Source: Acidobacteriota bacterium (GTDB lineage: Bacteria > Acidobacteriota > Terriglobia > Bryobacterales > Bryobacteraceae). From it: DNA of 64,000 nt. Every line of letters starts with the position of its first letter. Within the stretch, counting starts at the first letter, position 1. The notes under the pieces were generated by a model. The model saw nothing but the letters and a program-made list of their open reading frames with translations. It did not search any database and had not been told where the DNA came from. Made by a program: the position numbers and the translations under genes. Positions 7,768 through 21,178 of the stretch are shown here, piece after piece. Location of the stretch: the NCBI GenBank assembly GCA_017304135.1, contig JAFLBB010000007.1:7404-71403 (forward strand), written 5' to 3'.

Positions 7768-8241
7768 ATGGCAGCCATGCAGCTTACTCGAGCCGCCGAT
7801 TACGCCGTCCGCGTGATGATCACGCTGGCGGGCATGCCGCCGGGTGCGCGCGCCAGCCGCGAGTCGCTTGCTGGAGCGGCCGAGGTTCCCTCGCAGTTCC
7901 TGGGAAAGGTGTTGCAGGCGTTGACGCGCTCGCAGCTGATTGTTTCGCATCGTGGCTCACGGGGCGGCTTCTCGCTGGCCCGTCCCTCTTCCAACATCTC
8001 CATGCTCGACGTGGTGCAGTCCATTGAGGGCCCCATCCAGTTGAATGTCTGCCTGGGACAGGACGACGCTTGCGGCCGCCGCTGGTTCTGCAGTGCGCAT
8101 GAGGTATGGCGGACAGCGCAGGCGGTGTTGAGCGGCGTGCTGCAAAGCGCCAAGTTGGACCGGTTGGCGGCCGACGCCCTGCAGAGAAGAAGGCTGGGCG
8201 AGCCGTGCCCGATCCGCGCCGAGGAGATTGCATGGAGCTGA
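7768..8241 (+). CDS. Rrf2 family transcriptional regulator (three-Cys, IscR/NsrR-like)
   Basis: MQLTRAADYAVRVM… wHTH N-terminus typical of Rrf2. A C-x6-C-x5-C cluster (CLGQDDACGRRWFC) sits where IscR/NsrR ligate an Fe-S cluster. It heads the bc-cbb3 gene string. Confidence 0.85.
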   Translation: MAAMQLTRAADYAVRVMITLAGMPPGARASRESLAGAAEVPSQFLGKVLQALTRSQLIVSHRGSRGGFSLARPSSNISMLDVVQSIEGPIQLNVCLGQDDACGRRWFCSAHEVWRTAQAVLSGVLQSAKLDRLAADALQRRRLGEPCPIRAEEIAWS

Positions 8242-8420
8242 CCTGGGTGACCATCGCCGCCAGCCTGTGCATGGGCCTGGGAGCCGCCATGTTGTTTGTG
8301 TTCGCCGTGAAGAAGGACTGGTTCCGCGACATTGAAGACGCCAAGTACCACATGTTCTGGGCTGAGCTCCAGGACCTGGTGGACCATCCAGACACGAAGC
8401 AGGAGAAGAAATGCCCGTAA
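8232..8420 (+). CDS. ccoS: cbb3-type cytochrome oxidase maturation protein CcoS/FixS-like (62 aa, single TM)
   Basis: ATG 8232 with GAGGAG Shine-Dalgarno. [39 protein letters not shown] resembles the CcoS consensus (TM helix followed by F-x-WA-x-K-x-x-Q-F/Y-DD). Overlaps the end of the Rrf2 gene. Confidence 0.5.
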
Positions 8421-8905
8421 ACCTGAGGAGAAGCAGTGGCGCCAATACCGAACAAGGGGAGGGCGGGCATCGCCGCGCCTTCCTGGGATGGCTCACCAGC
8501 GTGGGTCTGTTCGGCTCGGCGGTGTTGAGCGCATTTTCCAATTTCGTATTCATCAAACCGCGCGCCACCTACGGCGCGCCGCAGCGGTTCAGCATCGGCA
8601 AGCCGGAGGATTTCCCGGCGGGGACGCGCATTGCCATCGAATCGCGCCGCATCTGCGTGGTGCGGGAAGGCGAGAAACTGGCGGCGATCTCCACCACCTG
8701 CACGCACCTGGGCTGCATCATCGGCATCAGCGACACGGGGTTTGCCTGTCCCTGCCATGGTTCGCGTTTCGATCAGGATGGCAATGTGACCGGTGGCCCG
8801 GCGCCGAGGCCGCTGCCCTGGTACAAGGTCTCGCTCGCGCCGAATGGCGAGGTCGAGGTGGACAAGGACGTTGAGATCGAGCCGGGGAGCTACCTGAACG
8901 TATGA
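8411..8905 (+). CDS. Rieske [2Fe-2S] iron-sulfur subunit of a cytochrome bc-type complex
   Basis: Rieske boxes CTHLGC and CPCHGS, a Tat-like N-terminus and one TM helix. AGGAGAAG Shine-Dalgarno upstream. Confidence 0.9.
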
Positions 8906-18530: not shown

Positions 18531-18701
18531 ATGCCTGATCGAGCCAACGCCAGTTCCGCCAAACCACGCTCTTACTTTCCCCTGTTTCTCAGCGCCATCT
18601 TCGTCCTCTTTCTCGGCCTCCTGGCTTACACCTGGATTGGCGCCGAGAAGGCCAACCCCGTGATCCTGGATGAGCACGGGCAGCCGCGCGACCGTCGATA
18701 A
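18531..18701 (+). CDS. small single-TM membrane protein (56 aa) at the ccoH position
   Basis: ATG 18531: MPDRANASSAKPRSYFPLFLSAIFVLFLGLLAYTWIGAEKANPVILDEHGQPRDRR*. Sits between ccoG and ccoI where ccoH/fixH usually is, but is far shorter than FixH. Not in the ORF track because it is under 60 aa. Confidence 0.3.
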   Translation: MPDRANASSAKPRSYFPLFLSAIFVLFLGLLAYTWIGAEKANPVILDEHGQPRDRR

Positions 18702-18703
18702 CC

Positions 18704-21178
18704 ATGACTCCCGCGGCTGCCGCCTCGTGCGCGCTGTGCGGCCTGCCGGCGGGCAGTAAGCCCTACGGCGGAACCTTCTCAGGCGAGGAGAAGCGCTTCT
18801 GTTGCGCCGGCTGCCTGAATGTCTATTCGATCCTGATCGAAAGCGGTGTGATCGCCGAAGGCGTCGACTTCCGGCAGACCGAGCTCTACCAGCAGAGCCT
18901 CAGGCTGGGTCTGATCTCCAACGGCGCCGCTGAGAGCAGCGGCATCCCCGCAGATGCCGAGCGCCGCGAACGGCTCTACCATCTCTCCGGTTTGTGGTGC
19001 ACCTCGTGCGGCTGGCTGATCGAACATGCGCTGTCCCGCGAACGCGGCATTGCCTCGGCCGAGGTTCTCTTTGCCTCCGACCTGCTCAAGGTCACCTATT
19101 GCCCGCAGTACATCGAACCCGCCCGCATCCCGGCGCGCGTCGCCTCGTTGGGCTACAAGGCCGCGGAGTATTCGCCCGAACACGAAGAGGACCGCTCCGA
19201 GTGGAACGACCTGCTGCTCCGCCTCGGCGTGGCCGGCATGTTGTGGATGAACGTGATGCTGTTCAGCCTGGTCGTCTACACCAGTTACTTTGAGGGCATC
19301 GCCATGTGGGCAAGCCGGTTCGTACCGCTGATTCTCATGTTCCTGGCCACGCCTGCGGTGTTCTATTCCGGCTGGCCCCTGCTGCGCATTGGCGTCTACG
19401 GCCTGTTGCAGGGATCGATCCGCATGGAGGCGCTGATTGCCACCGGCATCCTGGCCGCCTACGGCTACAGCACGGCGCAAGCGTTCCTCGGCGGCCAGCA
19501 CTACTATTTCGATACGGCCTGCGCCATTGTCACACTTGTACTGGCGGGCAAAGCGATGGAGCGCGCGGCCAAGGAGAAGACGGCCCGTGCCATCGGCATG
19601 CTCCACCGCTTGCTGCCCCGTAAGGCGCGGCTGATTCAGGATGGCCGCGAGCGGTTTGTCGCCGTGGAAGCGCTGCAAGCGGGCATGACCATGCTCGTCA
19701 AGCCTGGCGAGCGCGTGGCGGCCGACGGCATCATCCGCGCGGGCAATTCACTGCTGGATGAGTCGGTGCTCACGGGCGAATCGGCGCCGCGGCCGCGATC
19801 CGCCGGCGACCCTGTGGCAAGCGGAAGCTTGAACGGCGCCGGGGTTCTCGAGGTGGAGATCACACGCGCCGGGGAGGCCACCATCCTGTCGCAGGTGGTG
19901 CGCGCCGTGGAACAGGCGCTGGCCAGCCGGACCGAGATCGAGCGCACGGTGGACCGCGTCTCGCGTTTTTTCGTCCCCACAGTGCTGCTGGTAGCCGTGG
20001 CGACGTTTGCAGGGGCGGTGGCCCTCGGTGTGCCGGTCACCGATTCCCTGCTCCGGTCGATCGCCGTGGTTGTTATCGCCTGTCCCTGCGCGCTGGGCAT
20101 CGCCACGCCGCTTGCCGTGACGGCGGCCGTGGGAATGGCCTCGCGCCACGGCATTCTCATCCGCGACGCACTCATCCTCGAAGCTCTGCCCACGATCGAT
20201 GTTCTTGTACTCGACAAGACGGGCACGGTGACCGAAGGCAACTTCCGCGTGCAGGAATCGGCGGGCGATCCGCCGCTGGATCTGCTGGCCGCGCTCGAAT
20301 CGCGTTCCGAACACCCGCTGGCCTCGGCGATTGTGAAGCACGCCAATTCGCCCGCCGGCTCCCTGCCCGCCGTAACCGAGATCGAGGTGCACCGCGGTCT
20401 GGGAATTGTGGGAACCGTGGACGGTCATCGCATCGCGGCGGGCAGTCTGGGACTGTTGCAGAACCTGCACATTACTCCCGCCGACGCCGCGCGCGCCGAG
20501 GCCACCGCGTGGGCGGCCGAAGGACTCACCGTGGTGTGGTGCGCCGTCGACGGAGAATGCCGGGGCGCGCTCGCCTTGGGTGACCGGCTGCGCGAGGAAG
20601 CCGGCGCGTTGATCGAAACCATGCGGCGGCGCGGGGTGCGGACGATGCTGCTGTCGGGCGATTCGCAGGAGGCCGTGGCCAAGCTCGCCTCGGTGTTGGG
20701 CATTGAGGAGTTTCGTGCCGCCGTGACGCCGGAAGGGAAAGCGGACGTGATTCGCCAACTGCGAGGCGAGGGCCGCGCGGTGGCCATGGCCGGCGACGGC
20801 ATCAACGACGCTCCTGCGCTGGCGGCGGCGACGCTGGGCATCGCCATGGGCTCGGGAACCGATCTTGCCGTGCAAGCAGCTCCCGTTGTACTCATGTCCC
20901 GGTCCCTCTTGCGAGTCGCCGACATCTTTGATCTGGCGCGGCACACCCTGCGCACGGTTCGGCAAAATCTGTTCTGGGCGTTTTGTTATAACGTGGCCGG
21001 CATCGCGCTGGCCGCCACGGGCGTTCTCAATCCCATCCTGGCTGCGGGCGCGATGGCGTTGTCGAGCCTGTCGGTGATCCTCAACTCCTACCGGCTCGGG
21101 GTGCGCGTGCAGTGGTCCGAGCAAGCAAGTCCCACACGCCCGGATCACCAGGAAGCGGAGCCCACCGTGGCGGCGTGA
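18704..21178 (+). CDS. ccoI: copper-translocating P1B-type ATPase CcoI/FixI
   Basis: N-terminal Cys-rich metal-binding region (CALCGLP…CCAGCLNVY). CPC in TM6, DKTGT phosphorylation site, GDGINDAP hinge. 824 aa. Confidence 0.9.
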   Translation: MTPAAAASCALCGLPAGSKPYGGTFSGEEKRFCCAGCLNVYSILIESGVIAEGVDFRQTELYQQSLRLGLISNGAAESSGIPADAERRERLYHLSGLWCTSCGWLIEHALSRERGIASAEVLFASDLLKVTYCPQYIEPARIPARVASLGYKAAEYSPEHEEDRSEWNDLLLRLGVAGMLWMNVMLFSLVVYTSYFEGIAMWASRFVPLILMFLATPAVFYSGWPLLRIGVYGLLQGSIRMEALIATGILAAYGYSTAQAFLGGQHYYFDTACAIVTLVLAGKAMERAAKEKTARAIGMLHRLLPRKARLIQDGRERFVAVEALQAGMTMLVKPGERVAADGIIRAGNSLLDESVLTGESAPRPRSAGDPVASGSLNGAGVLEVEITRAGEATILSQVVRAVEQALASRTEIERTVDRVSRFFVPTVLLVAVATFAGAVALGVPVTDSLLRSIAVVVIACPCALGIATPLAVTAAVGMASRHGILIRDALILEALPTIDVLVLDKTGTVTEGNFRVQESAGDPPLDLLAALESRSEHPLASAIVKHANSPAGSLPAVTEIEVHRGLGIVGTVDGHRIAAGSLGLLQNLHITPADAARAEATAWAAEGLTVVWCAVDGECRGALALGDRLREEAGALIETMRRRGVRTMLLSGDSQEAVAKLASVLGIEEFRAAVTPEGKADVIRQLRGEGRAVAMAGDGINDAPALAAATLGIAMGSGTDLAVQAAPVVLMSRSLLRVADIFDLARHTLRTVRQNLFWAFCYNVAGIALAATGVLNPILAAGAMALSSLSVILNSYRLGVRVQWSEQASPTRPDHQEAEPTVAA

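Follow-up and report, generated by a model that had tools for sequence, protein, structure and literature searches.

A conserved acidobacterial gene string combining a Rieske/cytochrome b complex, a heptahaem cytochrome, a cbb3-type oxidase and an NfnB-like flavoprotein

We analysed a 64,000-nucleotide (nt) stretch of DNA from an Acidobacteriota bacterium of the family Bryobacteraceae (GenBank assembly GCA_017304135.1, contig JAFLBB010000007.1, positions 7,404 to 71,403), hereafter the window, whose open reading frame (ORF) list and Pfam/NCBIfam matches reveal fourteen plus-strand genes in a row at window positions 7768-21178. In order, these encode an Rrf2-family regulator, a CcoS-like protein, a Rieske protein, a cytochrome b, a heptahaem cytochrome c, CcoN and CcoO of a cbb3-type oxidase, two small proteins (orf59 and orf108), a flavoprotein, a DsbD_2 protein, CcoG, a third small protein (orf56) and CcoI. 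With a little more confidence than doubt, we read this string as a conserved super-operon whose products, the flavoprotein among them, would make up a single integrated module of (micro)aerobic respiration. A preliminary description of the same DNA had placed the Rieske, cytochrome b, heptahaem cytochrome, ccoN, ccoO, ccoS-like, ccoG and ccoI genes on one strand, separated by tiny or overlapping gaps and with the ccoS-like gene ahead of the structural genes. All of this agrees with our coordinates, and the spacing measured at every junction runs from an overlap of 26 nt to a gap of 18 nt. The ATGA overlaps that it had proposed at three junctions are present at Rieske/cytochrome b and orf59/orf108 but not at cytochrome c/ccoN, where the genes overlap by 26 nt and ccoN starts at the ATG at 12029, and its gene list, accurate for the genes it named, passed over the flavoprotein, the DsbD_2 protein and a 56-residue membrane ORF inside the string. 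Of the internal terminators that it had named as a sign of independent transcripts there is no indication: no terminator-like site lies at any junction, the total is below chance (8 vs 10.8 expected), and a sigma-70 promoter scan returned 0 matches. The operon-like packing makes co-expression of the string likely, and its genes are probably co-transcribed.

The strongest argument for direct electron transfer between the two complexes, and probably for a supercomplex, comes from the heptahaem cytochrome (606 residues; 10234-12054, plus strand). We counted exactly seven CxxCH motifs, as the preliminary description had stated, and all seven are invariant in 14 orthologues. Behind an N-terminal anchor, it has three haems of the c3/c7 type and four class-I domains in which Met-Pro motifs are conserved, and it divides into two parts of different affinity. 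Residues 1 to ~390 form a pentahaem part (three c3/c7-like and two class-I haems) that is homologous to the multihaem cytochromes of two Rieske/cytochrome b operons in which no oxidase was seen (loci L081 and L088). Residues ~390-606 form a CcoP-like dihaem part, with ccoP-like Pfam and NCBIfam matches at residues 379-595 (TIGR00782, 86.7 bits) and a match of the C-terminus to the CcoP chain 8smr_G in the PDB (E 1.6e-9). In three loci from more distant lineages (L087, L089 and L090), the counterpart is split into separate five-haem and two-haem genes, and the two-haem gene adjoins ccoN. Judged by its sequence, the heptahaem cytochrome is thus a fusion of the cytochrome of the Rieske/cytochrome b complex with the third subunit of the oxidase. 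Such a fusion of pentahaem and CcoP-like dihaem parts would tether electron transfer between the two complexes, which supports a physical or at least hard-wired bc-cbb3 link and probably the supercomplex that the preliminary description had predicted from the gene layout. In public databases, orthologues (P0008, P0019, P0033 and others) are labelled 'sulfur oxidation c-type cytochrome SoxX' or 'c-type cytochrome'.

The oxidase core downstream of this cytochrome is divergent and retains every expected ligand. CcoN (465 residues; 12029-13426, plus strand) is the catalytic subunit of a cbb3-type (C-family) haem-copper oxidase, matching Pfam COX1 (E 4e-92) and scoring 330 bits against TIGR00780, under the equivalog cut-off of 583, which marks it as a divergent member. 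Aligned over 431 residues to solved CcoN structures (9g6b, 3mk7), it keeps RLRPLH, W-x-Y-x-HN, Y-x5-HH and GHxH, that is, all the histidines of low-spin haem b, high-spin haem b3 and CuB together with the helix-VII cross-link tyrosine (YxxxxxHH). The gene for CcoO (189 residues; 13445-14014, plus strand) starts 18 nt further downstream and encodes the monohaem subunit, with a FixO match (E 3e-42) and a single CxxCH, at residue 74. The string lacks a separate ccoP gene. As cited in PMC8407424 from Ducluzeau et al. 2008, CcoP is not universal in cbb3 oxidases, and CcoNO forms the minimal core.

The quinol-oxidising side is encoded by two overlapping genes upstream. The Rieske [2Fe-2S] subunit (164 residues; 8411-8905, plus strand; Pfam Rieske, E 5.7e-14) has the CTHLGC and CPCHGS boxes, a twin-arginine HRRAFL sequence, one transmembrane anchor and a Ser/Phe pair (CPCHGSRF). 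Its best PDB matches are two Rieske proteins of anammox bacteria, 9rk4 (Kuste4569, E 3e-24) and 9rk3 (Kustd1480, E 2e-19), to which it is 44% and 43% identical, and b6f Rieske proteins rank after them (E 1e-11 to 1e-18). Among themselves, and in comparison with the window protein and the anammox pair, the Rieske proteins that we fetched from other flavoprotein-linked operons show 33-48% identity. The cytochrome b (440 residues; 8902-10224, plus strand; Pfam Cytochrome_B, E 2.9e-42; NCBIfam ExtP, 282 bits, and ExtQ, 77 bits) consists of a b6-like four-helix part fused to a subunit-IV-like part with three predicted helices, giving seven predicted helices in all, and its best PDB matches are cytochrome b6. 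The haem ligands H125/H139 and H226/H241 have b6-type 13/14 spacing, and the quinol-oxidation motif is APWY (KAPWYF). The haem-cn cysteine motif CxGG is absent both here, where the sequence reads TLGL, and in all the cbb3-linked relatives checked, a loss described as common in long cytochromes b (PMC5600118). The corresponding CMGG is present in a Nitrospirota operon (L081, 10412-12084, from a metagenome-assembled genome (MAG)), which also encodes a 274-residue subunit-IV-like protein with extra helices, like the anammox complexes.

Between the oxidase genes and the maturation genes lies the gene for an NfnB/GltD-like FAD/NAD(P)/Fe-S flavoprotein (644 residues; 14528-16462, plus strand; matching Fer4_20, Pyr_redox_2 and, twice, Fer4). 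The Fer4_20 domain is N-terminal, the dinucleotide folds are those for FAD and NAD(P), and the C-terminus is a ferredoxin domain of the 2x[4Fe-4S] kind; no transmembrane helix is predicted. Across the wider family sixteen cysteines are invariant, leaving room for four [4Fe-4S] clusters, and so are the GxGxxG and GGGNVA motifs. The best PDB sequence match is the A subunit of the electron-bifurcating NfnABC (9bov/9bp5, E 8e-85). An AlphaFold2 model (predicted local distance difference test score, pLDDT, 87) has NfnABC, StnABC and NfnI as its top Foldseek matches, with an E value of 2e-41 for 9bov and with the large subunit of NfnI (5jca_L) covering the core. Right after GGGNVA, at 15320-15445 (residues ~265-306), the sequence AYDVARSALR occurs twice around an insert of ~20 residues, and residues 281-307 of the model have pLDDT below 50. 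The repeat is found in all acidobacterial orthologues, is looser in most of the distant homologues and is absent in the Nitrospirota protein P0125.

The genomic contexts of the flavoprotein place it with the Rieske/cytochrome b genes. An exhaustive search of 50%-identity representatives returned many full-length homologues (40-55% identity), and we read the genomic context of nine of them (43-52% identity). In seven of these nine other contexts the homologue adjoins Rieske/cytochrome b genes, and four of the seven (L081, L083, L085 and L088) have no oxidase or ccoG gene within the stretch read, which for L083 ends right after the Rieske gene. Because of this adjacency, and because four such contexts lack a visible oxidase, the flavoprotein is, as far as gene context can tell, part of the Rieske/cytochrome b module and not of cbb3 maturation, and it would be a subunit of the membrane complex. 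In the Nitrospinota MAG locus (L085, 2070-7824), where no oxidase was seen, a gene for an EB_dh (haem-b-binding) protein is accompanied by genes for the flavoprotein, a long cytochrome b that is 57% identical to the window protein, a Rieske protein and a three-domain cytochrome c with a FixO-like domain, and a sigma-54 two-component activator gene precedes them.

The string is widely conserved. A genome scan with one genome per species, seeded with the heptahaem cytochrome, found relatives in 224 species-level genomes, and many metagenomes hold relatives of ~600 residues that are 64-79% identical. Locus comparisons used the best 80 of the 224 loci, which by similarity are all Acidobacteriota, a few MAGs probably carrying wrong taxonomic labels, and synteny was read by tblastn of every window protein in those loci long enough to judge. 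The 80 loci come from Bryobacterales, Solibacter-type bacteria, Holophagae including Geothrix, Blastocatellia and Chloracidobacterium, and among the carriers available in culture are Paludibaculum fermentans, Mesoterricola silvestris and a Geothrix isolate. The order ccoS-Rieske-cytb-c7-ccoN-ccoO-orf59-orf108-flavoprotein-(DsbD_2)-ccoG-orf56-ccoI is held in almost every locus, so that the synteny comparison with other Acidobacteria proposed in the preliminary description yields the same order in nearly all 80. The layout which it called unusual is so relative to the proteobacterial textbook only and is standard in at least 80 acidobacterial species-level genomes. Some variation occurs within this order. 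DsbD_2 is part of the string in Bryobacterales and Blastocatellia loci and missing from the strings of Holophagae, and some Blastocatellales-type loci (L059 at 13378-15088; also L061, L073 and L077) have two genes inserted between ccoN and ccoO, one for an FAD_binding_3 monooxygenase-like protein (424 residues) and one for a DUF7670 protein (128 residues). Median identities to the window proteins fall into two tiers, a catalytic one of CcoN (81%), CcoO (79%), cytochrome b (77%), flavoprotein (76%) and Rieske (74%), and one of assembly factors, namely CcoS (61%), CcoI (59%), CcoG (57%) and DsbD_2 (52%).

The three loci from more distant lineages (L087, which is cut off, L089 and L090) have the same gene set in another order, with the flavoprotein gene at the head, and their proteins are 35-60% identical to those of the window. 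This second architecture reads [Rrf2]-flavoprotein-FixS-Rieske-b6-subunit IV-5-haem c-(DsbD_2)-2-haem c-CcoN-CcoO-small ORF-CcoG-small ORF-CcoI, and in L089 the DsbD_2 gene sits between the two cytochrome c genes. Because the gene set is kept while the order changes, the two architectures together argue for a functional linkage of all the modules.

Upstream, the string is fronted by the gene for an Rrf2-family transcription regulator (157 residues; 7768-8241, plus strand; Pfam Rrf2, E 4.4e-29). It has the three cysteines noted in the preliminary description, with a spacing of C95-x6-C102-x5-C108 that recurs in L002, L018 and L087, and the pattern matches that of cluster-binding (Fe-S-type) Rrf2 members, among which the protein may belong. 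It scores below the cut-off of every characterised NCBIfam subfamily, including IscR, NsrR, RirA and SufR. A sigma-54-type -24/-12 promoter-like element, TGGCATACCGATTGCT, lies at 7710-7725 on the plus strand, 43 nt ahead of the Rrf2 start codon; no other site in the 64-kb window matches TGGCAY-N5-TTGCW (0.11 expected), and the element aligns with those upstream of Rrf2 in L001, L003, L005 and L025. With a relaxed pattern, 13 of 68 loci have a match upstream of ccoS, about ten times as many as the background rate of 0.018 per 900 nt would give. No enhancer-binding protein gene (GAFTGA motif) was found in the 64-kb window, and sigma-54 activator genes lie directly upstream of two distant flavoprotein-Rieske operons. 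In a profile search, 31 of 69 loci, from several classes, had a co-directional Rrf2 gene no more than 1.5 kb ahead of ccoS, and an Rrf2 gene is also present in L087 and L089. The proposal that Rrf2 rather than FNR heads the unit is thus correct for the window, but applies to only 31 of 69 loci and has to accommodate the sigma-54-type element upstream.

The remaining genes of the string encode maturation factors and small membrane proteins. DsbD_2 (236 residues; 16470-17180, plus strand; Pfam DsbD_2, E 1.2e-47) is a CcdA-like membrane thiol-reductant transporter. CcoG (451 residues; 17164-18519, plus strand) is a FixG-like polyferredoxin membrane protein with Fer4_18, FixG_C and Fer4_5 domains, scoring 255.9 bits against TIGR02745, below the cut-off of 316.7 bits. 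CcoI (824 residues; 18704-21178, plus strand) is a FixI-like copper-translocating P1B-type ATPase with E1-E2_ATPase, HMA and ATPase-cat_bd matches, and its TIGR01525 score (541 bits) is above the cut-off. The CcoS/FixS-like single-helix membrane protein (62 residues; 8232-8420, plus strand), whose gene overlaps the Rrf2 stop by 10 nt, scores 19.8 bits against FixS, below the 23.1-bit cut-off; it is present in 71 loci, and the genes at the same position in L087, L089 and L090 carry PF03597 matches. At the ccoQ position, orf59 (59 residues; 14023-14202, plus strand) encodes a single-helix protein that is kept in 69 loci at a median identity of 55% and has no family match and no FixQ signal in Pfam at E values up to 10. 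In both the CcoS-like protein and orf59, a single helix precedes the pattern [KR]-D-[GW]-[YF]...E-D-x-K-Y-x-[VM]-F, the tail of orf59 reading RDGYW...EDxKYxVF, and by this resemblance the two look like distant paralogues, such that the string may hold two FixS-type small proteins. At the ccoH position, orf56 (56 residues; 18531-18701, plus strand) encodes a single-helix protein without a family match that was detected in 26 loci; its 42-residue counterpart in L090 has a weak FixH match (E 0.038), and no recognisable CcoH was found among the proteins of the string.

The gene orf108 (14199-14525, plus strand) encodes a two-helix membrane protein of 108 residues that is kept in 69 loci, without a family match and with 19 invariant residues including H61. 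It overlaps orf59 by the ATGA noted above and is followed by a gap of 2 nt before the flavoprotein gene. The labels 'CcoQ-like' and 'CcoP_N' given to the two small ORFs in the preliminary description draw no support from any profile search: neither FixP_N nor FixQ was detected for orf108 or orf59 in Pfam at E values up to 10, using single sequences and 25 alignment members, a family profile of orf108 searched against all PDB chains gave no CcoP match, and hhalign of orf108 with the small protein of L090 returned a probability of 1.8%. By eye, the motif PxFLKxAFxxIGL...Y in orf108 recalls FixP_N, a lead and not a result. At the level of a guess, from its place just before the flavoprotein gene and its invariant histidine, orf108 is a candidate anchor or linker, and with its two helices it might stand in for subunit-IV helices that the window cytochrome b lacks relative to the anammox models.

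On its left, the string is bordered by two minus-strand Gfo/Idh/MocA genes and a tRNA-Lys gene (anticodon CTT; 7095-7170, plus strand), which lies between them and the operon and is the sole RNA element found in an Rfam scan. On its right follows a minus-strand S9 peptidase gene. Long ORFs overlap on both strands at 4355-5626 and 5636-6985, where the minus-strand ORFs are real Gfo/Idh/MocA oxidoreductase genes and the plus-strand ORFs of 422 and 473 residues opposite them have no family match. The 597-nt non-coding stretch after tRNA-Lys holds three short palindromes, which we considered as a possible operator upstream of Rrf2 and rejected, as none is conserved in an alignment of 25 upstream regions. 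The idea that the string is a recently acquired island finds no support: G+C content is flat across the region (0.62-0.65), and the best matches are all to Acidobacteriota.

In the integrated module that we propose, the heptahaem cytochrome would wire the CcoN/CcoO cbb3 oxidase to a Rieske/cytochrome b complex that oxidises menaquinol and is of the b6-like 'APWY' type. Quinol would be oxidised at the outer (Qp) site, from which the high-potential electron would pass through the Rieske cluster, the c haems and CcoO to CcoN and O2, and the low-potential electron would pass through the two b haems and the Fe-S chain of the flavoprotein to FAD and NADP+. Such a scheme would correspond to the quinol bifurcation proposed for anammox bacteria, with O2 reduction as the driving reaction. 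The CcoS-like protein, DsbD_2, CcoG and the copper ATPase CcoI would provide dedicated cofactor maturation, and control would be exerted by an Fe-S-type Rrf2 protein behind the sigma-54-type promoter. As far as is known, the carrier organisms use menaquinone. Flow from the b haems to NADP+ is the direction that we favour at the flavoprotein, speculatively, because a high-potential-type Rieske protein in menaquinone organisms falls under the energetic argument made in PMC12954380.

The closest known relatives of such a complex are those of anammox bacteria. In Kuenenia stuttgartiensis, Kuste4569-4574 and Kustd1480-1485 encode Rieske/cytochrome b complexes that contain, besides a b6-like cytochrome and a protein resembling subunit IV, hexa- or octahaem cytochromes and a putative NAD(P) oxidoreductase (Kartal et al. 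2013; Hauser et al. 2025, PMC12954380), and a quinol-based bifurcation yielding NAD(P)H has been proposed for them (PMC12954380). The Kustd1480 Rieske protein was measured at +335 mV, the five-helix subunit IV holds a proposed extra haem b, placed between the b haems and the Fe-S chain, in the anammox models, and 9bp5, which has the same sequence as 9bov, is the best structural homologue of Kuste4570 (PMC12954380). Co-migration of all Kuste4569-4574 subunits goes back to a complexome study, in the form in which it is cited by Hauser et al. 2025 (PMC12954380), and assembly of such a flavoprotein with the membrane complex is reported for anammox bacteria only (PMC12954380, PMC5600118). The window complex would share with these a compact Rieske protein, a b6-like cytochrome b that includes a part resembling subunit IV, a multihaem c-type cytochrome replacing c1 or f, a cytoplasmic FAD/NAD(P) protein with about four Fe-S clusters and NfnABC (9bp5/9bov) as its best structural match, and a menaquinone background with a Ser/Phe or Ser/Tyr Rieske signature, the Ser/Phe of the window being the pair of Kustd1480. 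It differs in that its cytochrome b and subunit IV are fused, with three subunit-IV helices rather than five and without the haem-cn cysteine, in that its cytochrome has seven haems and a CcoP-like dihaem end, and in that its operon also holds CcoNO and the maturation genes, so that the acceptor is evidently O2 and not nitrite or an unknown one. The hosts of the window type are aerobic to microaerobic heterotrophs. The tie of the window flavoprotein to Kuste4570/Kustd1483 is suggested by their shared best structural homologue and the related Rieske proteins.

Other known systems share parts of this arrangement. Proteobacteria, as far as is known, carry their bc1 and cbb3 genes in separate operons, and the association of the two complexes is loose or was engineered. 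Supercomplexes of bc1 and cbb3 have been solved from Rhodobacter capsulatus (PMC7876108) and Pseudomonas aeruginosa (PMC10556555), and chains of these structures appear among the PDB matches of the window proteins. The two systems have in common CcoN/CcoO cores with all ligands, CcoG-, CcoI- and CcoS-like factors and a quinol-oxidising complex that feeds, or in the window, as known from its genes, would feed, cbb3 through membrane-tethered c-type cytochromes. The proteobacterial complexes, however, have a long bc1-type cytochrome b with PEWY and a monohaem c1, whereas the window cytochrome b is b6-like with APWY, and the window places everything in one string, with the CcoP dihaem fused, no recognisable CcoH or CcoQ and a flavoprotein added. 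Within the acidobacteria, 'superoperons' for bc1-caa3 and ACIII-caa3 are presumed to form supercomplexes (Trojan et al. 2021, PMC8407424); like the window string, they unite complex III and IV genes of the same phylum in one unit, but their oxidases are A-family caa3 enzymes, no flavoprotein or maturation genes are described with them, and the Acidobacteriaceae strains of that study have a separate cbb3 set of ccoN, ccoO and one more gene. In fold and cofactor sites the window flavoprotein corresponds to the FAD subunit, which binds NADPH and bears [4Fe-4S] clusters at its N-terminus, of the flavin-based electron-bifurcating enzymes NfnAB, NfnABC and StnABC, and to GltD, the small subunit of glutamate synthase. 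However, no NfnA-, NfnC- or GltB-type partner is encoded here, membrane cytochromes stand alongside it, and it is distinguished by a 2x[4Fe-4S] domain of its own at the C-terminus and by an insert, specific to the family, behind GGGNVA.

The cytochrome b itself belongs with sequences that have been classified before. The APWY clade was defined by Kao & Hunte 2014, who list an APWY copy in Ca. Solibacter usitatus and suggest for such enzymes a reverse operation in which electrons from the high-potential chain reduce quinone (PMC4122944). Dibrova et al. 2017 describe for cytochrome b subfamily G a co-occurrence with NAD(P)-binding Fe-S oxidoreductases and assign to clade G' long cytochromes b in 'large conserved operons ... 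of an unknown function' (PMC5600118), of which the window operon may be one. The window proteins resemble both groups in the APWY motif and in a paired Rieske protein with the Ser/Phe ('Mid+') signature, whose complexes both papers leave uncharacterised (PMC4122944, PMC5600118). The presence of cbb3 genes in this operon speaks for a forward-running, quinol-oxidising enzyme here.

Several observations weigh against reading the string as one integrated bifurcating module. In a Ca. Solibacter MAG locus (L047, 13800-21782) the string ends after orf59, followed by unrelated minus-strand genes (SLT transglycosylase, bactofilin, radical SAM), which could be either a real truncation or relocation or an assembly join. 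Two of the nine flavoprotein contexts (L084 and L086) are without a nearby Rieske/cytochrome b gene, and no anammox-labelled protein was among the flavoprotein matches listed from the representative search, the cluster look-ups and a Nitrospirota-seeded search. Three of the seven haems are of the c3/c7 type, which is usually low-potential and an odd fit for a high-potential wire. Because the window cytochrome b has no haem-cn cysteine and three subunit-IV helices, the path from haem bH to the flavoprotein drawn for anammox complexes cannot be carried over, and the hosts are heterotrophs without an obvious need for NADPH from quinol. We treat it as a tentative possibility, and one less likely than not, that the string encodes an aerobic counterpart of the anammox bifurcating complexes, in which the drop from menaquinol to O2 would drive NADPH synthesis in one membrane machine.

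A serious rival keeps the same assembly and reverses the flavoprotein, such that NAD(P)H electrons would enter through the Fe-S chain and reach cytochrome b on its n-side, at haem bH and the site of quinone reduction, in a manner resembling the b6f-bound ferredoxin:NADP+ reductase. This would make the module a self-contained NAD(P)H-to-O2 chain with an internal quinone loop, serving energy conservation or O2 scavenging in the largely anaerobic Holophagae and Geothrix. The NAD(P) and FAD folds of the flavoprotein are intact, and electron transfer from NAD(P)H to O2 runs steeply downhill and works without specially adjusted potentials. Organisms of the Geothrix and Holophaga type are numerous among the carriers, the genus being given as anaerobic in a table of PMC5900883, and ferredoxin:NADP+ reductase co-purifies with b6f (Zhang et al. 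2001, as cited in PMC5600118). Set against these points, the Ser/Phe Rieske protein is closest to the high-potential anammox ones and, together with menaquinone, predicts very low-potential b haems, which by the argument of PMC12954380 would suit the reduction of NAD(P)+ better than the uptake of NAD(P)H electrons. Haem cn, thought to take up stromal electrons in b6f, is also missing. Moreover, such genomes would normally have ordinary NADH dehydrogenases. We consider the reversed direction unlikely, if worth keeping in view beside the proposed forward flow.

The string might also reflect co-regulation and nothing further, with the Rieske/cytochrome b complex, the cbb3 oxidase and a soluble NADPH-dependent flavoenzyme made together at low O2 and acting separately, electrons passing between the two membrane complexes by diffusion or loose contact. 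Operons often group functionally related and physically separate enzymes, the acidobacterial caa3 superoperons are likewise only presumed to give supercomplexes (PMC8407424), and the two flavoprotein contexts without Rieske/cytochrome b would fit. This account nevertheless has to explain why one anchored heptahaem polypeptide holds both cytochromes, which at least tethers the step from the bc complex to the oxidase, why there is no separate ccoP gene, why the gene set survives rearrangement across distant lineages and why the flavoprotein is conserved in the tier of the catalytic subunits. In addition, a homologous flavoprotein is reported to co-migrate with an anammox complex, as far as the citation in PMC12954380 goes, and we regard co-regulation alone as distinctly improbable. 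A role of the flavoprotein in maturation, as an NADPH-driven donor to CcoG for Cu(II) reduction or to DsbD_2 for thiols in cbb3 and cytochrome c assembly, is suggested by the position of its gene directly upstream of DsbD_2 and ccoG in the window; to our knowledge, CcoG is a cupric reductase for which no electron donor has been identified. Homologues nonetheless occur in Rieske/cytochrome b operons without visible ccoN, ccoG or ccoI (L081, L085 and L088), and the second architecture puts the flavoprotein at the head beside FixS and Rieske, far from ccoG. The flavoprotein is also far more conserved than CcoG, CcoI and DsbD_2, Holophagae retain it in strings without DsbD_2, and proteobacterial ccoGHIS clusters function, as far as we know, without such a protein. 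We accordingly rejected the flavoprotein as an electron donor of CcoG or DsbD_2 on gene context and conservation tier, and rate a maturation role as very improbable.

Each ingredient of the proposed respiratory module has been known before, namely cbb3 oxidases, b6-like Rieske/cytochrome b complexes with multihaem cytochromes, anammox NAD(P) oxidoreductase subunits, acidobacterial III-IV superoperons and bc1-cbb3 supercomplexes, and it is their combination in one conserved operon that appears to be new. In the full-text literature searched, which did not extend to key older papers, we found no description of the combined operon, of the pentahaem-CcoP fusion or of the two architectures. The finding has practical consequences for annotation: surveys that score Acidobacteria by 'cbb3 = ccoNOP' will mis-score a system without a ccoP gene, and the SoxX label on the heptahaem cytochrome could lead pathway surveys to mis-score sulfur oxidation and to overlook the CcoP equivalent. 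An APWY-type cytochrome b is, in this light, unlikely to be simply a 'reverse-running' enzyme. Even on the conservative reading alone, the gene fusion provides a clear genetic case for a hard-wired bc-cbb3 assembly outside Proteobacteria.

Discussion of Rieske/cytochrome b complexes that bear an NAD(P) oxidoreductase, and of their unsettled role, has centred almost entirely on anammox bacteria, organisms that are difficult to cultivate. For one of their two complexes the high-potential partner reaction is unknown, whereas here the cbb3 O2 reductase is an unambiguous sink. Conservation of the string across a major soil phylum and the existence of cultured carriers make the idea of bifurcation to NADPH directly testable. 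If that idea is true, abundant Acidobacteria of soil, sediment and freshwater, together with related lineages, would possess a reverse electron transport that is independent of the proton-motive force and could, for example, supply reducing power to cells living on quinone-level donors, and the cultured carriers would offer the first experimentally tractable model for this class of complexes.

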